Source of the DNA: a virus
Lineage: Duplodnaviria > Heunggongvirae > Uroviricota > Caudoviricetes
IMG/VR virus record: IMGVR_UViG_2541047502_000017
DNA length: 5,650 nt
Strand: one strand, 5' to 3'
The notes under the pieces were generated by a model. The model saw nothing but the letters and a program-made list of their open reading frames with translations. It was not told where the DNA came from and made no database searches. Positions within the stretch are counted from its first letter, which is position 1. Each line of letters starts with the position of its first letter. This document shows, in pieces, positions 1 to 5,650 of this stretch. A program made the position numbers and the translations under genes.

Positions 1-1578
1 CTGTTACCCGTTTATGCACAGAAAACCGGGAAAACCACCGATGAAATTGCTGCCATGCTGGCGGATGAGACCTGGATGTCCGGTGCCGAATGTCTGGCAC
101 ATGGATTTGCTGATCAGGTGACGCCAGCCGTTAAGGCAATGGCATGTATTCAGTCAAAACGTACAGAGGAATTTAAAAAGATGCCGGAATCCATTCGAAA
201 CATGATTACTCCGCCACGCAACAGTGCTCCACGCGTACAGGATGATGGACCTGCAGCCTCCCGGACGCCAGTGCAGGCAGCAGCACCTGTGGTGGATGAA
301 AACAGTATCCGTGCGCAGGTACTGGCAGAGCAAAAAGCGCGTGTAAACGGTATTAATGATCTGTTTGCCATGTTTGGCGGGCGTTATCAGACGCTGCAGG
401 CTCAGTGTCTTGCCGATCCTGAATGTTCGCTGGAGCAGGCCCGCGAAAAGCTGTTGAACGAGATGGGGCGCGAGTCCACGCCATCTAATAAAAATACCCC
501 GGCTCATATTTATGCCGGAAACGGTAATTTTGTGGGGGATGGGATCCGCCAGGCGCTGATGGCGCGTGCCGGATTTGAAAAAACCGAACGTGATAATGTC
601 TACAACGGGATGACCCTGCGTGAATATGCCCGTATGTCACTGACTGAACGGGGTATTGGGGTTTCCAGTTATAACCCGATGCAGATGGTCGGTGCGGCGT
701 TCACACACAGTACGTCTGACTTCGGTAATATTCTGCTGGATGTTGCGAACAAAGCCATTCTGCAGGGCTGGGAAGATGCCCCTGAAACCTATGAACAGTG
801 GACGCGGAAAGGTCAGTTGTCTGATTTTAAAATTGCCCATCGTGTGGGTATGGGGGGCTTCAGTGCTCTGCGTCAGGTGCGTGAAGGGGCGGAATATAAA
901 TACGTCACCACCGGAGATAAACAGGCCACTATTGCACTGGCGACCTATGGCGAGCTGTTCAGTATCACCCGTCAGGCCATTATCAATGATGATCTGAATA
1001 TGCTGACCGATGTCCCGATGAAACTGGGCCGTGCGGCGAAATCCACTATTGCCGATCTGGTTTATGCCATTCTGACGTCTAACCCGAAAATCTCCACAGA
1101 TAATGTAAGTCTGTTCGATAAAGCGAAACATGCAAACGTACTGGAGAGCGCTGCAATGGACGTGGCATCGCTGGATAAAGCCCGCCAGTTGATGCGCGTT
1201 CAGAAAGAGGGGGAGCGTCATCTGAATATTCGTCCTGCGTTCGTACTGGTACCGACGGCGATGGAGTCTGTTGCTAACCAGGTCATTCGCTCCTCAAGTG
1301 TCAAGGGGGCTGACATTAACGCCGGTATTATTAACCCGGTGAAAGATTTTGCGACCGTTATTGCAGAGCCTCGTCTTGATGATAACAGCCAGACCACCTT
1401 CTACCTGGCTGCGTCAAAAGGCTCCGATACGATTGAAGTGGCTTATCTCAACGGTGTGGATACGCCATATATTGATCAGATGGAGGGCTTCAGTGTGGAT
1501 GGCGTGACAACGAAAGTGCGTATTGACGCCGGTGTCGCGCCAGTTGATCACCGCGGTCTGGTGAAATGTACGGCGTAA
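1..1578 (+). CDS. Fused prohead protease / scaffold-like linker / HK97-fold major capsid protein; 3' portion only (5' end lies upstream of the window)
   Basis: Frame 1 is open from base 1 (no stop before the ATG at 55 listed in the ORF track), so the gene enters from upstream. The first ~30 codons (…KTTDEIAAMLADETWMSGAECLAHGFADQV) resemble the C-terminal end of ClpP/S49-type phage prohead proteases. A Pro/Ala/Gln-rich, charged linker follows, then ~350 aa that read like an HK97-fold major capsid protein. Stop TAA at 1576-1578. Confidence 0.8.
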   Translation: MLPVYAQKTGKTTDEIAAMLADETWMSGAECLAHGFADQVTPAVKAMACIQSKRTEEFKKMPESIRNMITPPRNSAPRVQDDGPAASRTPVQAAAPVVDENSIRAQVLAEQKARVNGINDLFAMFGGRYQTLQAQCLADPECSLEQAREKLLNEMGRESTPSNKNTPAHIYAGNGNFVGDGIRQALMARAGFEKTERDNVYNGMTLREYARMSLTERGIGVSSYNPMQMVGAAFTHSTSDFGNILLDVANKAILQGWEDAPETYEQWTRKGQLSDFKIAHRVGMGGFSALRQVREGAEYKYVTTGDKQATIALATYGELFSITRQAIINDDLNMLTDVPMKLGRAAKSTIADLVYAILTSNPKISTDNVSLFDKAKHANVLESAAMDVASLDKARQLMRVQKEGERHLNIRPAFVLVPTAMESVANQVIRSSSVKGADINAGIINPVKDFATVIAEPRLDDNSQTTFYLAASKGSDTIEVAYLNGVDTPYIDQMEGFSVDGVTTKVRIDAGVAPVDHRGLVKCTA

Positions 1579-1601
1579 ACGTCGCAGACAACAACTCTGA
1601 T

Positions 1602-1621
1602 GGCCCGTAAGGGCTTTTTTT
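1602..1621 (+). terminator. Possible weak intrinsic terminator/attenuator after the capsid gene
   Basis: GGCCC-GTAA-GGGC hairpin (4-5 bp GC stem, GNRA-type tetraloop) at 1602-1614, immediately followed by a run of 7 T at 1615-1621, 24 nt after the capsid stop. The short stem makes it weak. Confidence 0.35.
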
Positions 1622-1632
1622 GTACCTGAAAT

Positions 1633-1651
1633 CAGCCCCTGAACGGGGCTG
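1633..1651 (+). other. Perfect 7-bp stem-loop just upstream of the next gene's ribosome-binding site (possible RNA stability or processing element)
   Basis: CAGCCCC (1633-1639), loop TGAAC, GGGGCTG (1645-1651) form a perfect inverted repeat. No T-run follows. The GGAGA Shine-Dalgarno at 1654-1658 and the ATG at 1665 come right after. Confidence 0.3.
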
Positions 1652-1664
1652 TGCGGAGACAGTT

Positions 1665-1988
1665 ATGGCAAAGAATTTTGTAGAAGAAGGAAAAACGGTG
1701 GCGATTGTTGCCAGTGCAGCCATCAGCAGCGGAGATCTGGTGCAGGTGGGCGATGTTTTTGCGGTGGCGCTGACCGATATTCCACAGGGTGAAACAGGCG
1801 ACGGCATGACCGAAGGTGTGTTTATGCTGCCTAAGCTGAAAACGGATGACATGAAAACGGGTAAGAAGGTTTATCTGAAGTCAGGAAAAGTTCAGCTGAC
1901 TAACAGCGGCTCTGATCCGCTGGTCGGGGTTGTCTGGGCAGATGCCGGAACCAGTGCAGAAGAAGTGCCGGTAAAACTCAATGTCTGA
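1665..1988 (+). CDS. Small head protein, DUF2190-like (putative capsid decoration/cement protein)
   Basis: 107-aa ORF. ATG at 1665 is preceded by GGAGA at 1654-1658; the ORF-track start at 1620 is a TTG lying inside the hairpin/T-run and is unlikely. Gly/Val-rich, beta-rich composition and position immediately after the major capsid gene. The family name is from memory and not verified. Stop TGA at 1986-1988 overlaps the next start. Confidence 0.65.
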   Translation: MAKNFVEEGKTVAIVASAAISSGDLVQVGDVFAVALTDIPQGETGDGMTEGVFMLPKLKTDDMKTGKKVYLKSGKVQLTNSGSDPLVGVVWADAGTSAEEVPVKLNV

Positions 1989-2256
1989 TCCCTTTTCCCG
2001 GCTGGCAGCGCGTATGGATGCTATCACGGTCAGAAAGATGGGAAAGACAGCCTCGATTAATGATGTCGATATGACTGTGATCCCGGGAGAAACACTGGCA
2101 GAGCTGAATGCTCTGTCCGGACCTGCGGTCTCTCTGGTGGTGTTTTCTTCGGGATACCGCCCACGGCGCGGGGATCGCGTTGTTTATGACGGACAACAAT
2201 GGACGGTCACACGGCATGAACGCTTTAACGGTAAGCCAATGATCTTTATTGAGTAA
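1981..2256 (+). CDS. Head-tail joining (head completion) protein, lambda FII-like
   Basis: 91-aa ORF. Its ATG at 1981 overlaps the upstream stop (ATGTCTGA, 8-nt overlap), indicating translational coupling. Recalled similarity to lambda gpFII at both ends (FSRLAARMDAI versus FDNLFDAAIARAD; PRRGDRVVYDGQQWTV versus LRRGDTLTIGEENFWV). Stop TAA at 2254-2256. Confidence 0.65.
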   Translation: MSDPFSRLAARMDAITVRKMGKTASINDVDMTVIPGETLAELNALSGPAVSLVVFSSGYRPRRGDRVVYDGQQWTVTRHERFNGKPMIFIE

Positions 2257-2267
2257 AGAGGTGTGGG

Positions 2268-2846
2268 ATGAAGGGGCTTGAGAATGCCATCCGCAATCTG
2301 AACAGCCTTGATACCCGTATGGTGCCACAGGCCAGCGCATGGGCGATAAACCGTGTGGCACAGAAAGCGGGCTCGGTTGCCACCCGGCAGGTTGCCGGGA
2401 ATACCGTTGCGGGAGATAACCAGGTGAAAGGGATCCCCCTGAAACTGGTTCGTCAGCGTGTCCGGGTGTTTAAAGCCAGTCCGTCAGGAAAAATGACGGC
2501 CAGGATCCGCGTTAACCGGGGCAATCTGCCCGCCATTAAGCTGGGGACAGCCCGGGTCAGACTGGCCCAGCGTGGTGGAAAACTGCAGTACCGTGGCAGT
2601 GTGCTGAAGGTGGGTAAATATCTTTTCCGGGATGCGTTTATTCAGCAACTGGCGAATGGTCGCTGGCATGTGATGCGGCGTATTGATGGCAAAAATCGTT
2701 ACCCCATTGATGTGGTGAAAATCCCGCTGTCCGGACCGCTGACACAGGCATTTGAAGATGCCCGCGACCGCATCATTGCTGCGGAAATGCCGAAACAGCT
2801 GGGGTATGCACTGAAACAACAACTGAGGTTATGGCTGACCCGATGA
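2268..2846 (+). CDS. Tail completion protein, lambda Z-like
   Basis: 192 aa, the same length as lambda gpZ. N-terminus MKGLENAIRNL…AWAINRVAQKA and C-terminus …NGRWHVMRRIDGKNRYPIDVVKIP…LGYALKQQLR resemble gpZ as I recall it. AGAGGTG ribosome-binding site at 2257-2263. Synteny FII-Z-U-V. Confidence 0.8.
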   Translation: MKGLENAIRNLNSLDTRMVPQASAWAINRVAQKAGSVATRQVAGNTVAGDNQVKGIPLKLVRQRVRVFKASPSGKMTARIRVNRGNLPAIKLGTARVRLAQRGGKLQYRGSVLKVGKYLFRDAFIQQLANGRWHVMRRIDGKNRYPIDVVKIPLSGPLTQAFEDARDRIIAAEMPKQLGYALKQQLRLWLTR

Positions 2847-3244
2847 ACCGACATACACAAATCCGCCAGGTCGTACTGGCACGCCTTCGGGAACAGTGTG
2901 GAGACAGCGCCACGTTTTTTGACGGGCTTCCGGCATTTGTTGATGCGCAGGAACTGCCTGCCGTGGCGGTGTGGCTGAGTGATGCTCAGTACACCGGAAA
3001 AATGACGGATGAAGATGACTGGCAGGCTGTTCTGCATATTGCTGTCTTCATCCGGGCACAGGCACCGGATTCAGAGCTGGATATGTGGATGGAGAGCACC
3101 ATTTTCCCGGCCCTGAATGATGTATCGGCACTTTCCGGACTCATCGACACCCTGATCCCACTCGGTTTTAACTATCAACGTGATAATGAGATGGCCACCT
3201 GGGCGATGGCGGAAATCACGTACCAGATCACGTACACGAATTAA
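2843..3244 (+). CDS. Tail terminator protein, lambda U-like
   Basis: Start ATG at 2843 overlaps the Z stop in an ATGA arrangement (TGA 2844-2846). The product MNRHTQIRQVVLARL…ATFFDGLPAFVDAQELPAVAVWLSDAQYTG…DSELDMWMES…ITYQITY closely parallels lambda gpU (…ATFFDGRPAVFDE…PAVAVYL…DSELDAWMES…LTYVITY). An in-frame ATG at 2831 is an alternative start. Stop TAA at 3242-3244. Confidence 0.85.
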   Translation: MNRHTQIRQVVLARLREQCGDSATFFDGLPAFVDAQELPAVAVWLSDAQYTGKMTDEDDWQAVLHIAVFIRAQAPDSELDMWMESTIFPALNDVSALSGLIDTLIPLGFNYQRDNEMATWAMAEITYQITYTN

Positions 3245-3254
3245 GGAGGTGGTA

Positions 3255-3998
3255 ATGACCACGCCAAATCCACTGGCAAAGACGAAAGGTGCGGGGACGA
3301 CGTTCTGGATGTATACCGGCAACGGCGATGCGTTTGCGAACCCTTTGTCGGACACTGACTGGCTGCGTCTTGCGATGGTGAAGGATCTGCAACCTGGCGA
3401 AATGACCGCTGATGCAGAAGATGACACTTATCTCGATGATGAAGATGCAGACTGGAAAACGACAACCCAGGGGCAGAAATCCGTTGGTGATACTTCGGCG
3501 ACGCTGGCCTGGCGTCCGGGTGACAGCGGGCAGAAAAAACTGGTTCAGTTGTTCGACTCCGGTGAAGTCTGCGCGTTTCGTATCAAATATCCCAACGGCA
3601 CTGTTGATGTTTTCCGCGGCTGGCTGAGCTCACTGGGTAAAACCATTGCCTCAAAAGACGTGATGACCCGCACAGTGAAAATCAGCGGTGTGGGGCGTCC
3701 ATATCTGGCAGAGGAGGGCACTGAAACTGTGGGCGTTACCGGGCTGACGGTGGCACCGGCATCCGCCAGTGTCAATGTGGGAGCAACCACCACGCTGACC
3801 TTTACAGTAAAACCTGACGGAGCCAGTGACAAAGCGATCAGTGTGCATTCGACAGATCCACAGACAGCCACTGTGACCCTGAACGGACTTGTGGCCACGG
3901 TGAAAGGCGTGAAGCAGGGCAGCGTCAGCATTGTGGGCATGACCGCTGACGGGAATTTTGTGGCTGTGGCTGCGGTGACTGTCAGCGCTGCAGGTTAA
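3255..3998 (+). CDS. Major tail tube protein, lambda V-like, with C-terminal Ig-like (Big_2-type) domain
   Basis: Strong ribosome-binding site AAGGAGGT at 3243-3250, 4 nt before the ATG at 3255. The N-terminus MTTPNPLAKTKGAGTTFWMYTGNGDAFANPLSDTDW…YLDDEDADW…GDTSATLAWRPGDSGQ…YPNGTVDVFRGWLSSLG matches lambda gpV nearly motif for motif. The C-terminal ~90 aa (GLTVAPASASVNVGATTTLTFTVKPDG…) look like a Big_2 Ig-like domain. The ORF-track start at 3180 lies inside the U gene and is rejected. Stop TAA at 3996-3998. Confidence 0.9.
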   Translation: MTTPNPLAKTKGAGTTFWMYTGNGDAFANPLSDTDWLRLAMVKDLQPGEMTADAEDDTYLDDEDADWKTTTQGQKSVGDTSATLAWRPGDSGQKKLVQLFDSGEVCAFRIKYPNGTVDVFRGWLSSLGKTIASKDVMTRTVKISGVGRPYLAEEGTETVGVTGLTVAPASASVNVGATTTLTFTVKPDGASDKAISVHSTDPQTATVTLNGLVATVKGVKQGSVSIVGMTADGNFVAVAAVTVSAAG

Positions 3999-4018
3999 CA
4001 GGACGATACTCATCATTT

Positions 4019-4042
4019 GCCCCGGTTATCCGGGGCTTTTTT
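4019..4042 (+). terminator. Rho-independent terminator/attenuator between the major tail gene and the chaperone gene
   Basis: GCCCCGG (4019-4025), loop TTAT, CCGGGGC (4030-4036) give a perfect 7-bp GC-rich stem, followed directly by TTTTTT (4037-4042). It starts 20 nt after the V-like stop and lies just upstream of the G-like ribosome-binding site. Confidence 0.55.
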
Positions 4043-4055
4043 GCAGGTGGAGAAC

Positions 4056-4445
4056 ATGATGTTTCTGAAACAGGGCACGTTTAATTATGAAAAGCAGTCC
4101 GTGGTGCTCAGTGAGCTGTCCGGGCTGCAGAGAATTGAATATCTGGCGTTTGTTCAGCAGCGAACGGCAAAGTTTGATGCCGAAGAGGGAGAACTGCCGG
4201 AGGCTGAACGACAGATTGCTTTTCTGCGGATGGGGATGGATATCAATGCCTGGCTGGTTTCCCGCTCACTGTGGAATGCGGAACAGTCTCAGGATGTTGA
4301 GACGCTTTGCGCATCCGTTATTACAACATGGTCGTATGATGCCCTGGGAGCGGGGGCGGAGATGGTTCTGTCGCTGAGCGGTATGGGAGCCATTGAGAAT
4401 GCCGGGGATTTGGAGCATGAGGTGCTGACGCCGGAAAAGTCCTGA
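4056..4445 (+). CDS. Tail assembly chaperone, lambda G-like
   Basis: MMFLKQGTFNYEKQSVVLSELSGLQRIEYLAF… parallels lambda gpG (MFLKTESFEHNGVTVTLSELSALQRIEHLA…). AGGTGGAG ribosome-binding site at 4045-4052. The start is ATG 4056 or the adjacent ATG 4059. The ORF-track start at 4017 is a TTG inside the terminator hairpin. Stop TGA at 4443-4445. Confidence 0.85.
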   Translation: MMFLKQGTFNYEKQSVVLSELSGLQRIEYLAFVQQRTAKFDAEEGELPEAERQIAFLRMGMDINAWLVSRSLWNAEQSQDVETLCASVITTWSYDALGAGAEMVLSLSGMGAIENAGDLEHEVLTPEKS

Positions 4446-4783
4446 CGCGGGAAATGCAGTTTGTCATGCGGCTTGCCCGGGAGTTCCGGCGGGCAGACTG
4501 GCGGCGGATGCTGTCGGAAATGTCGGCCACTGAGCTTGGTGAGTGGGGCGATTATTTCCGGATGCAGAGCTTCAGTGATGTGTGGATGGATGCGCAGTTT
4601 GCCTCGCTGAAGGCATTGATCGTGAGAATGGTGTCCGGTAGCAGTGATGCTGCGGTGGCTGATTTCAGCCTTTTACCGGAAGAGAACGGGATACCGGAGC
4701 GAACGGACGAAGAACTGATGCATCTTGGGGAAGGTATTTCCGGAGGTGTGCGTTATGGACCAGATAGCCAACCTGGTCATTGA
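4056..4783 (+). CDS. Tail assembly chaperone G-T fusion product, made by a -1 frameshift near 4433-4439 (two-segment CDS: 4056 to about 4439 in frame 0, then about 4439 to 4783 in frame -1)
   Basis: The downstream ORF (4454-4783 in the track) is in the -1 frame relative to G, overlaps the G 3' end, and has no ribosome-binding site of its own. This is the conserved G/G-T architecture upstream of tape measure genes in long-tailed phages. Stop TGA at 4781-4783. Confidence 0.7.
4433..4439 (+). other. Putative -1 programmed ribosomal frameshift site (heptamer G GAA AAG) for the G-T fusion
   Basis: The -1 frame is open only from 4421 (stop TGA at 4418-4420) and the G frame stops at 4443, so the shift must occur within 4421-4442. 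The only slippery element in that interval is GAA-AAG at 4434-4439, preceded by G. It differs by one base from lambda's G GGA AAG. Confidence 0.55.
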
Positions 4784-5390
4784 TTTGGGGATTGATGCGG
4801 CAGAGTTTAAAAATGAAATTCCCCGTATCAAAAACCTTCTGAATGGTGCAGCCAGCGATGCAGAACGGTCTTCTGCCCGTATGCAGCGTTTTATGGAGCG
4901 TCAGACTCAGGCCGCCCGGCAGACAATGCAGGCGGCTTCTTCGGCTGCAACAGCCGCATCCGTCCATGCGCAGACGGTGGAGAAGAGCGCACAGGCTCAT
5001 GAACGCATGGCCCGCGAGGTGGAGCAAACCCGCCAGCGTATGGAGGCACTGAGCCAGAAAATGCGCGAGGAACAGGCGCAGGCCATGGCTCTGGCGGAGG
5101 CTCAGGATAAAGCGGCTGCTGCGTTTTATCGTCAGATTGACAGTGTGAAACAGGCCGGTGCGGGGCTGCAGGAATTACAGCGTATTCAGCAACAGATCCG
5201 ACAGGCCAGAAACAGTGGCGGGATTGGTCAGCAGGATTATCTGGCGCTGATTTCTGAGGTTACGGCGAAAACCCGTGTTCTTACACAGGCTGAGGAAGAG
5301 GCTACCCGACAGAAAGTGGCGTTTATCCGTCAGCTTAAAGAGCAGGCAACCCGCCAGAATCTTTCTTCTTCTGAGTTGCTTCGTGCGTAA
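4755..5390 (+). pseudogene. Tape measure protein gene, N-terminal ~212 codons only; truncated by an insertion sequence
   Basis: GGAGGTG ribosome-binding site at 4742-4748 and ATG at 4755, overlapping the end of T by 29 nt. The N-terminus MDQIANLVIDLGIDAAEFKNE… resembles lambda gpH (…VGDLVVDLSLDAARFDEQ…), followed by Ala/Gln/Arg-rich coiled-coil-like sequence typical of tape measure proteins. Tape measure proteins of tails this type are usually 700-1100 aa, but this frame stops at TAA 5388-5390, which sits inside the GTAAGCG terminal motif of the IS. Confidence 0.7.
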
Positions 5391-5650
5391 GCGTACATCC
5401 TGAACCGTCTGGTCAGAATCTGACGAATTAGACAAAGTGGTGTCCACCAAATAAGTAGTGGGAACCAAAGTATCAGATATGCAGAAAAATGTGACTCCCG
5501 GCAGGCGAAAAGGCTGCCCTAATTATCCTCCCGAATTTAAACAGCAGCTCGTTGCTGCCTCCTGTGAACCCGGGATATCCATCTCAAAACTTGCTCTTGA
5601 AAATGGCATTAACGCCAATCTGTTGTTCAAATGGCGACAACAATGGCGCG
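5387..5650 (+). mobile_element. IS66-family insertion sequence, left end (continues beyond the window)
   Basis: The sequence beginning GTAAGCG at 5387 matches the 5'-GTAAGCG terminal inverted-repeat motif I recall for the IS66 family. About 90 bp further in, an ORF begins whose product resembles IS66-family TnpA/orf1. It interrupts an otherwise conserved phage gene. Confidence 0.6.
5479..5650 (+). CDS. IS66-family transposase accessory protein TnpA (orf1), N-terminal 57 codons; 3' end beyond the window
   Basis: Frame 1 is open from the ATG at 5479 to the window end. Translation: MQKNVTPGRRKGCPNYPPEFKQQLVAASCEPGISISKLALENGINANLLFKWRQQWR, with a helix-turn-helix-like segment and the ANLL…W(R/K)QQW motif typical of IS66-family orf1 proteins. 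It is not in the ORF track because it has no stop within the window. Confidence 0.65.
   Translation, partial: MQKNVTPGRRKGCPNYPPEFKQQLVAASCEPGISISKLALENGINANLLFKWRQQWR

Follow-up and report, generated by a model that had tools for sequence, protein, structure and literature searches.

The closest described counterpart of the locus analysed here is the 'tripartite capsid gene' of Gifsy-2, STM1034.3n (696 aa), in which the protease and coat genes are fused (PMC12315714) and which is presented as a single composite coding region in the title of Effantin et al. 2010 (Virology 402:355), as cited in PMC8538268. The Gifsy-2 capsid carries a trimeric decoration protein at its 3-fold axes (PMC8538268), and a table in PMC8814770 lists the shell as T=7; maturation of the Gifsy-2 capsid protein through proteolytic loss of the protease and middle region is likewise taken from secondary citations. 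The Pseudomonas MD8-like phages have the same three-in-one gene, likewise described as a single coding region (PMC8508860 section 2.5), and gp5 of MD8 itself is a 693-residue protein uniting protease, scaffold and major capsid protein (MCP) in a single gene (PMC8508860). Lambda and HK97 are organized differently. In lambda, a ClpP-clan protease is followed in the same frame by the scaffold, which is also made from an internal in-frame start, so that genes C and Nu3 are nested (Shaw & Murialdo 1980, cited in PMC8508860; CDS C 4418-5737 and nu3 5132-5737 in RefSeq NC_001416); the capsid protein E is encoded by a separate gene. HK97 gp5 joins a helical N-terminal domain to the HK97-fold capsid, and the HK97 protease has a gene of its own.

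The window, by which we mean the whole 5,650-nucleotide stretch of DNA analysed, opens inside a gene of the Gifsy-2 kind. An ORF scan of the given (+) strand, on which all features described below are located, found frame 1 free of stops from base 1 to a TAA at 1576-1578 and many stops in the other two frames of bases 1-1578. The encoded protein matched PHROG 133 over profile positions 139-667 of 668 (E 5e-270), which indicated that the window begins some 140-150 residues into a longer protein. The missing upstream 150 codons were supplied by prophage copies in E. coli O157:H7 whose sequence agrees with bases 1-5386 at 100% identity. Bases 1-1578 correspond at 100% identity to positions 6001-7578 of L001, inside a CDS (5551-7578) encoding WP_001136598.1, and in the identical O157:H7 chromosomes the ORF extends, free of stops and frameshifts, back to a GTG start. 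This GTG lies 450 bases upstream of window base 1, and an AAGGAGG Shine-Dalgarno (SD) sequence precedes it by 5 nt. Window base 1 is the first base of codon 151 of a 675-codon gene, and the window encodes the last 525 residues of a 675-residue, 73.5-kDa protein, followed by the stop. For the whole-protein HMM match described below, the query was the full protein of a genome that does not differ from the window in the 1578 bases they share. An earlier reading of the window from its letters alone (the sequence-only reading) had proposed that the capsid frame is continuous with a protease segment at the window start, and both the stop-free frame and the recovered upstream sequence bear this out.

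The full protein belongs to NF045540 ('ClpP-like prohead protease/major capsid protein fusion protein'), against which it scored 979 bits, twice the curated cut-off of 475, with residues 32-674 of 675 covered; the RefSeq product name of the exact protein already follows this label. It shares with the Gifsy-2 protein the same order of three modules and 70% identity over 669 residues, in agreement with the earlier statement that the arrangement is known from enterobacterial prophages. The neighbours match as well: a portal gene upstream, a decoration protein of ~107 aa downstream and then the lambda-like Z, U, V, G, T and H tail genes. Nothing substantial differs between the two loci, apart from the sequence of a first linker, an 8-residue indel in a second linker and the fact that the window copy lies in a degraded prophage. 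A protein of the MD8-related Pseudomonas phage vB_Pae_CF165a is 56% identical to the window protein over 97% of its length, the MD8-like phages differing from the window prophage in host genus and G+C content. The Gifsy-2-type features found are the whole-protein HMM match, a ClpP fold, an HK97-fold capsid domain in the same ORF and the synteny of the head module, in which the portal gene is immediately upstream (overlapping) and the decoration gene immediately downstream, with no separate scaffold or capsid gene. Overall, bases 1-1578 are very probably explained as belonging to the capsid gene of a lambdoid (Gifsy-2 / mEp460 / cdtI-type) O157:H7 prophage, a gene of which they make up the 3' three-quarters. 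The protease-scaffold-capsid fusion as such is known, curated and widespread, which makes its detection here correct but ordinary.

Bases 1-201 encode the end of the protease domain (residues 151-217), as delimited by Pfam, alignment to ClpP, Foldseek and an AlphaFold2 model. In the window alone, residues 3-41 matched the last 40 positions of Pfam CLP_protease at 21.9 bits (cut-off 20.2, E 1.8e-4); in the full protein, CLP_protease (PF00574) covers residues 31-191 with an E of 1.7e-36, and NF045542 scored 215 bits (cut-off 120). The model has a Foldseek TM-score of ~0.8 to ClpP, and its fold matches viral proteases too. By alignment to solved ClpP chains, we placed the catalytic residues Ser101 and His124 upstream of the window, in the motifs GVAASMA and MIHKP, which align with the Ser and His motifs of ClpP; Glu173 (bases 67-69) aligns with the catalytic Asp of ClpP and is adjoined by Asp172 (bases 64-66). 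In 128 diverse relatives, Ser101 is conserved in 99%, His124 in 100% and position 173 as Glu in 85% and Asp in 10%. The N-terminal domain has the ClpP (S14) fold, a Ser-His pair and, at 172/173, a third residue that is acidic; catalysis is predicted from this alignment. The sequence-only reading had called the segment ClpP/S49-protease-like, of which the ClpP part holds and the S49 part does not: PF01343 (Peptidase_S49) was unmatched by the full protein, the best SppA-type match (TIGR00706) reached 22 bits against a cut-off of 155, and the S49 assignment was rejected since only S14/ClpP models exceed their thresholds. The lambda protease, in contrast, is of the S49 family (gpC matches PF01343 at E 1.5e-44), although a profile comparison by hhalign aligns the lambda and window protease regions with a probability of 80%. 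The HK97 protease belongs to yet another arrangement, being of a different family and encoded by a separate gene, whereas that of the window is fused.

The HK97-fold major capsid domain occupies bases 529-1575 (residues 327-675). Phage_capsid_4 (PF25209) matched the full protein at E 1.5e-54 and window residues 227-522 at E 1.1e-54. Two AlphaFold2 models were computed from alignments of 64 and 65 sequences (mean pLDDT 78.8 and 80.6), the second without the protease. Searched against the PDB with Foldseek, the full-length model retrieved ClpP chains only, so that the second, protease-free model was needed to reveal the capsid fold; it matched HK97 Prohead II and Head II, T5 pb8, other phage capsids and encapsulins with a probability of 1.00 at 8-15% identity, and viral 'Major capsid protein' models matched the capsid domain with a TM-score of 0.79. 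The domain shares only ~12-15% identity with that of HK97, and Gifsy-2-type capsids use a decoration protein (PMC8538268) where HK97 uses covalent chainmail. In lambda the capsid protein is a separate gene product, whereas here its counterpart is in the same ORF as the protease. If cut just upstream, the capsid domain would be a protein of 349 aa and 38.1 kDa.

Hundreds of capsid subunits go into a capsid of the Gifsy-2 type. HK97 and lambda draw the protease they package from a separate or nested gene, and a 1:1 coupling of protease to capsid by the gene itself is therefore puzzling. A candidate solution is an in-frame ATG at bases 181-183 (Met211), a putative internal initiation codon singled out by sequence conservation and mRNA openness. 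It is preceded at bases 166-170 by an SD-like GAGGA, a candidate ribosome-binding site located inside the coding frame and formed by codons Glu206-Glu207. Initiation at Met211 would yield residues 211-675 (465 aa, 50.6 kDa), that is, the scaffold-like module and the capsid domain without the protease. This would give a nesting like that of lambda C/Nu3, and the predicted product would be an exact architectural analogue of HK97 gp5.

The ATG is found at codon 211 in 57/57 representatives of 48-100% identity which, like the codon 206 figures that follow, is a column count in a clade of probably single origin and thus not a count of independent events. The third base of codon 206 is G and the next two bases are GA in 57/57 representatives below 93% identity (GAG in 48, CAG in 6, AAG in 3), as compared with an average of 0.48 NAG over 48 E/K/Q control columns. 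Elsewhere in the same alignment, columns reaching at least 0.95 were found only at the true SD of the annotated start. The register between the SD-like element and the ATG is fixed, at an aligned spacing of ~8 nt. The mRNA from -30 to +20 around Met211 is less structured than the gene background in 57/57 representatives (mean z +1.87), and this same stretch is A+T-rich by 13.5 points; neither the open mRNA nor the A+T signal was seen in the control clade. The vB_Pae_CF165a gene also has an internal ATG and AGGAG. A first test, on four sequences and then on 19 contexts, had been weakly significant (p ~0.03) given a GAG usage of 35-46%, and it took DNA from diverse species and controls by site to make the signal convincing. 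These data suggest that the GGA core of the SD-like element is held by synonymous-site constraint in an open, A+T-rich mRNA and that a 465-residue scaffold-capsid protein may be translated from a nested start. That the gammaproteobacterial branch (the window, Gifsy-2, mEp460, cdtI, the Stx-phage relatives and the MD8-like phages) carries a nested gene pair that is both real and not already described seems to us, from this comparative evidence, a serious possibility somewhat short of probable. We found no mention of a nested start in the literature covered, from which the primary Gifsy-2 paper is excluded, nor of an internal start in the MD8 paper (PMC8508860).

It is also quite possible, at a little under an even chance, that the 675-residue polyprotein is the sole product, the ATG and the GGA core reflecting either constraint on the protein, where a conserved Glu/Asp-Phe-x-x-Met-Pro motif closes the protease domain, or ribosome pausing in support of protease folding. 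Both published descriptions cited above, the title of Effantin et al. 2010 as given in PMC8538268 and section 2.5 of PMC8508860, read the gene as a single composite coding region. Pro212 is kept in 120 of the 128 relatives, including those lacking the methionine, so that some constraint at this spot acts on the protein. The internal ATG and SD were not found in relatives at ≤43% identity, in the more distant of which position 211 is A, V, I, P or T, and yet these relatives keep the fusion; a second product can therefore not be essential to the architecture as such. The probable single origin of the Met clade likewise weakens the counts. A protein-level constraint, however, does not predict that the residue at codon 206 should vary (E, K, Q, R, M) while the G of its third position and the GA after it never do, nor that the same signature should recur in the alignment only at a known SD. 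The constant spacing to the ATG and the unusually open, A+T-rich mRNA of all 57 representatives, with no equivalent in the control clade, also speak for initiation at Met211.

Some further candidate observations on the nested start were discarded. Proteins P0166 and P0229 start exactly at the Met-Pro and were considered as natural stand-alone scaffold-capsid proteins, but were rejected as evidence: one of them comes from a 1.5-kb contig ending 35 nt upstream of the Met-Pro, and in the draft genome that encodes the other, homology to the fusion linker persists in the upstream frame, indicating a frameshift. A dnaX-like frameshift at TTTAAAAAG, beside the SD-like element, was dropped as the heptamer is not conserved in relatives. 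Met211 was also rejected as the positional equivalent of the lambda Nu3 start, which aligns at about residue 150, inside the protease domain, while Met211 comes after it.

Between the protease and capsid domains, at about window codons 46-176 (protein residues 196-326), the sequence-only reading had seen a single low-complexity, charged linker of ~120 aa at codons 30-150. This description did not hold: the region, with a charged fraction of 0.24, differs little from the flanking domains in charge or sequence entropy, and it consists of two short disordered linkers around a folded module. The first linker (bases 208-294, residues 220-248; pLDDT <50) is P/A/Q-rich and varies in length and sequence; in the family alignment, gaps and variability peak in its columns, and it is poorly conserved with respect to Gifsy-2. 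The module (bases 298-471, residues 250-307) stands in the scaffold/delta-domain position and was predicted by two independent models (pLDDT 76-88) to form three helices at 250-273, 280-288 and 294-307, with Arg264, Ile268, Ala297, Leu301-Leu302 and Gly306 conserved. The second linker (bases 478-522, residues 310-324; pLDDT <50 in both models) contains Pro311, kept in 108 of the 128 relatives, and the 8-residue indel relative to Gifsy-2. It is the most likely region of a putative maturation cleavage freeing the capsid protein, although the cleavage site itself is not readable from the sequence, as had been rightly noted at the outset.

A profile of residues 245-326 gave no significant Pfam or PDB match to scaffolds, delta domains or other families, its top matches being insignificant ClpC N-domain repeats (E 0.5-1.2), and because of this the label 'scaffold' is given to the module by position and analogy only. 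The order of module, 15-residue linker and HK97 fold resembles HK97 gp5 in architecture only, the same profile showing no sequence similarity to the HK97 delta domain. It is conceivable, but unlikely, that the module instead regulates or inhibits the protease, docks to the portal or, as a spacer, positions the protease in the shell. Such roles would agree with the lack of significant matches just described and with the shortness of the module, ~58 folded residues against 102 in the HK97 delta domain (PMC8508860). Its location directly upstream of the capsid N-arm is nevertheless that of the delta domain in HK97, the interval from portal to decoration gene holds no separate scaffolding gene, and the equivalent region of MD8 resembles the lambda Nu3 domain in secondary structure (PMC8508860). 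The module also travels with the capsid domain in a second type of fusion. NF045541 ('prohead protease/major capsid protein fusion protein') is homologous over the middle module and capsid domain, matching residues 220-672 at 399 bits, below its cut-off of 525, so that the window protein is not a member. In this second type, represented by Ralstonia phage YO194_2 (31% identity), a different N-terminal domain, not ClpP-like and with no Pfam match, is fused upstream in one 697-residue ORF. We conclude that a polypeptide combining protease, scaffold-position module and capsid protein, as first proposed, is supported, and that the idea of one precursor may need correcting in view of the internal start signature.

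That the long ORF might be a nonfunctional accident of this genome, through a frameshift, lost stop or assembly error joining separate protease and capsid genes, is hardly credible and already refuted by the distribution of the fusion: indel-made fusions do occur at the locus (~12 portal-protease-capsid ORFs of 1159 residues) and other lesions are present in the same prophage, but the same end-to-end architecture aligns with the fusion in >100 clusters at 50% identity, 35-60% identical to the query, is also found in the cultured phages mEp460, cdtI, Ayreon, Tritos and Gifsy-2, is covered by a dedicated, curated NCBIfam model and is kept in frame across the junction region. The 1159-residue proteins were themselves considered as a designed four-part fusion and rejected; they are single-base-deletion alleles (GATCCGGCC to GATCGGCC) that arise by loss of one C in the overlap of portal and protease.

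A scheme of head assembly can be proposed by analogy with Gifsy-2, HK97 and lambda. Fused chains would co-assemble on the portal into a procapsid with the protease and scaffold modules inside. The protease, whose conserved Ser-His active site and likeness to Gifsy-2 make autoproteolytic processing plausible, would cut in the flexible linkers, with residues 308-326 as the likeliest zone, after which the freed N-terminal parts would be degraded and leave the shell. The remaining capsid protein of ~38-40 kDa would then expand and be stabilised by the decoration protein encoded at bases 1665-1988. We infer processing, cleavage positions and T number, and likewise that the middle module is a scaffold. 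As a probable refinement suggested by the comparative evidence, ribosomes would also start at Met211 and produce the protease-free, 465-residue scaffold-capsid chain, the ratio of the two starts (73.5-kDa versus 50.6-kDa chain) setting the number of protease domains packed per procapsid. The gene would then act like the nested C/Nu3 pair of lambda combined with the delta-domain capsid protein of HK97. If true, the internal start would resolve the awkward implication that each capsid subunit brings its own protease, and would be a third documented way, besides lambda C/Nu3 and HK97 gp4/gp5, to set the protease:scaffold:capsid ratio from overlapping coding sequence. The fusion architecture is thus the known part of this account, documented and curated, and the conserved internal start signature is the new part, which we offer as a lead.

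The gene following the fusion gene (bases 1665-1988) was assigned to a head decoration (cement) protein of 107 aa (DUF2190 / Phage_cement_2) from Pfam (PF09956, E 9e-21), PHROG 122 ('head decoration', E 1.8e-47) and synteny, its position being that of STM1034 in Gifsy-2. Further downstream, an IS66-family element interrupts the tape measure gene at about base 5387, and the prophage is therefore probably defective and, in the source strain, probably incapable of virion production. The portal gene is split in identical prophage copies and the terminase is a pseudogene in one strain, so that the window copy may never be expressed productively. The window contains no Chi site (0.34 expected).

The full-length fusion is present in 80 phage records. 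If initiation at Met211 is real, the family has a second protein product that thousands of its database entries lack. Correctly annotated, the gene is the major capsid gene of the prophage and not merely a "Clp protease", the label under which many database records list it.

The sequence-only reading held that the window opens within a single polypeptide carrying a prohead protease, a linker and the major capsid protein. On the + strand, frame 1 reads from base 1 without interruption until a stop codon at 1576-1578, whereas stops abound in the remaining two frames. Of the 525 window residues, 3-41 align with the final ~40 positions of Pfam CLP_protease (21.9 bits, cut-off 20.2) and 227-522 with Phage_capsid_4 (E 1.1e-54). 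The alignment to a PHROG profile of 668 positions begins only at position 139 and continues to the end of the profile, so that some 140-150 residues are missing upstream of the window. Many complete E. coli O157:H7 chromosomes carry prophage DNA with 100% identity to bases 1-5386, and in them the fusion ORF runs unbroken from a GTG start that lies 450 bases before the window, with AAGGAGG 5 nt ahead of this start; a stop or frameshift separating protease from capsid just upstream of the window is therefore excluded. The product of the full ORF (WP_001136598.1, 675 residues, whose numbering is used for the protein) is already named in RefSeq as a protease-capsid fusion and reaches 979 bits (cut-off 475) with NCBIfam model NF045540. 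Pfam places CLP_protease (E 1.7e-36) at protein residues 31-191 and Phage_capsid_4 at 378-672, confirming that protease and capsid share one polypeptide. The proposed ClpP/S49-like protease proved to be ClpP-like, whereas none of the S49 models was matched by the full 675-residue protein.

The upstream sequence supplies the catalytic pair: in alignments to solved ClpP structures, Ser101 (GVAASMA) and His124 (MIHKP) take the places of the active-site Ser and His. The catalytic Asp is aligned with Glu173, which adjoins Asp172 (both at window bases 64-69). Across 128 diverse full-length relatives, Ser101 is conserved in 99%, His124 in 100% and Glu or Asp at position 173 in 95%. Two AlphaFold2 models, of a near-identical 675-residue protein (64-sequence alignment) and of window residues 100-525 (65 sequences), agree on a layout comprising a ClpP-like domain (protein residues 21-217), a disordered P/A/Q-rich linker (220-248), a confidently predicted three-helix module (250-307), a second disordered linker (310-324) and the capsid domain (327-675). 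The protease module superposes on ClpP with a TM-score of ~0.8; the capsid module matches HK97 Prohead II, Head II, T5 pb8, other phage capsids and encapsulins with probability 1.00 at just 8-15% identity, and also matches viral "Major capsid protein" models. The region between the domains had been described as a ~120-aa low-complexity, charged linker, which is inaccurate since only ~45 residues are disordered, composition and entropy are otherwise ordinary, and the three-helix module is folded within it. This module has no significant match among Pfam families or solved structures. For the suggested precursor with its own protease and scaffold, the analysis shows a single ORF, three modules, conservation of the active site and membership of the family, while the scaffold role of the middle module rests on its position, the lack of another scaffold gene and its occurrence next to the capsid domain in a second type of fusion with a different N-terminal domain.

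The interest of the locus, low to moderate, rests mainly on a candidate internal start. A scan for such starts singled out the in-frame ATG of Met211 (bases 181-183), directly after the protease domain, with a Shine-Dalgarno-like GAGGA at 166-170, 11 nt upstream. We sampled 120 loci from viral and genome collections, giving 48 distinct contexts and 57 representatives of less than 93% mutual identity (48-100% identical to the window protein; counts uncorrected for phylogeny) from Enterobacterales, Pasteurellaceae, Pseudomonas, Shewanella, Psychromonas, Ferrimonas, Photobacterium and Oceanimonas. Every one of the 57 has the ATG. Constraint on the protein could also account for Met211, and Pro212 is indeed conserved even in relatives without the Met. 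Codon 206 is GAG, CAG, AAG, CGG or ATG, its third base always being G, and is followed by GA in 55 of the 57, which yields a GGA core in fixed register while synonymous sites around it vary freely. As a site-by-site control, NAG usage was taken over 48 Glu/Lys/Gln columns of this alignment; it averaged 0.48, and values of at least 0.95 were reached only at codon 206 (57/57) and at two codons of the annotated start's genuine Shine-Dalgarno. The mRNA from -30 to +20 around Met211 has less structure than elsewhere in the gene in 57/57 representatives (mean z +1.87), with A+T raised by 13.5 points. All three features are missing from relatives of at most 43% identity: they lack the ATG and the GGA core, and their mRNA is not open at this place (mean z +0.41, A+T excess +1 point). 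These three hallmarks of initiation are all present together or all absent, and their joint occurrence suggests a second product, a 465-residue protein of 50.6 kDa in which the scaffold-like module is joined to the capsid protein. The clade carrying Met211 probably has a single origin. The predicted product would have the architecture of HK97 gp5 and be made in the manner of lambda Nu3 within C, although the latter analogy is conceptual only, since Nu3 starts inside the protease domain whereas Met211 follows it. Separately, Lys203 (window 157-159), 22 nt upstream of the ATG, is AAA in 54/54 representatives, which places it at the other end of the NAG distribution; it may belong to an A-rich enhancer of initiation.

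By analogy with Gifsy-2, HK97 and lambda, the chains would co-assemble into a procapsid that encloses the protease and scaffold modules, after which cuts in the flexible linkers would release the N-terminal parts; shell expansion and binding of the decoration protein, which in Gifsy-2 forms a trimer at each 3-fold axis (PMC8538268), would follow. The second linker is the most likely maturation site, and a cut there would leave a mature capsid protein of a predicted 38-40 kDa. Two conserved prolines each stand at the start of one disordered linker: Pro212 (window 184-186), kept in 120/128 relatives inside an F-x-[NK]-x-P motif, and Pro311, kept in 108/128 after a conserved L-L-x-x-[LM]-G (window 466-483, Gly306...Pro311). 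Both motifs may serve in protease recognition or cleavage.

The architecture is already known and curated, and it is common. It had correctly been attributed to enterobacterial prophages: besides the curated NF045540, the product of the 'tripartite capsid gene' of Gifsy-2 (Effantin et al. 2010, as cited in PMC8538268) is 70% identical to the window protein over 669 residues, and the gene order around the fusion gene is common to both phages. A three-in-one gene of the same kind occurs in Pseudomonas MD8-like phages (PMC8508860, section 2.5), the full-length fusion is found in 80 phage records, and well over 100 clusters (50% identity) align end to end with it at 35-60% identity. An unannotated record of Ralstonia phage YO194_2 (L086 2829-4922) holds a 697-residue ORF in which an N-terminal domain without Pfam match is followed by '...MPGEATT...' and then by the same middle module and capsid domain; it is a second type of protease-capsid fusion (cf. 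NF045541). In GCA_000755365.1 (L087 2411-4386) a protease gene (201 aa) is apparently split from a scaffold-capsid gene (443 aa). The frame ahead of the second gene still shows homology to the fusion linker, and the protease reads aberrantly in part, so this pair probably reflects a frameshift in a fusion gene or, the genome being a draft, a sequencing error. About a dozen 1159-residue database proteins join a lambda-type portal to the protease-capsid chain; compared with the usual arrangement, a single C is missing (GATCCGGCC to GATCGGCC) from the 56-nt portal/protease overlap (upstream of the window, at 5551-5606 of L001, a locus of the identical O157:H7 prophage). They are either real alleles or assembly errors.

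The capsid gene is intact in the window copy, and the prophage family (L001 1296-5606) is decaying in O157:H7. At ~5387 the tape measure ORF meets the terminal repeat (GTAAGCG...) of an ISEc8-like IS66-family element, whose left end occupies 5387-5650 and supplies a TAA stop at 5388-5390; tnpA comes next, starting near 5480. A search of 5,426 complete E. coli genomes found this exact junction in none of them. Otherwise identical copies have the portal gene annotated as two CDS (L001 4025-5149 and 5271-5606), and strain FRIK944 carries an internal stop in the terminase large subunit (pseudogene) and a frameshifted DUF1441 gene. The window prophage is probably unable to make infectious particles.

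The remaining window genes form a lambda-like head-tail series: a decoration protein (1665-1988), a Gifsy-2-family head-tail protein (1981-2256), homologues of Z (2268-2846), U (2831-3244), V (major tail protein, with a Big_2 domain; 3255-3998), G (4056-4445) and T (4454-4783), and the tape measure gene from its annotated start at 4755. The 91-residue product of 1981-2256 is named 'DNA breaking-rejoining protein' in RefSeq and 'ATP-binding sugar transporter from pro-phage' in Pfam; both names look like legacy misannotations, since a role in head-tail joining is indicated by where the gene lies, by PHROG 153 and by a weak match to Phage_attach. In the tail assembly chaperone pair, T lies in the -1 frame relative to G, the same relative frame as in the G/GT programmed frameshift of lambda.
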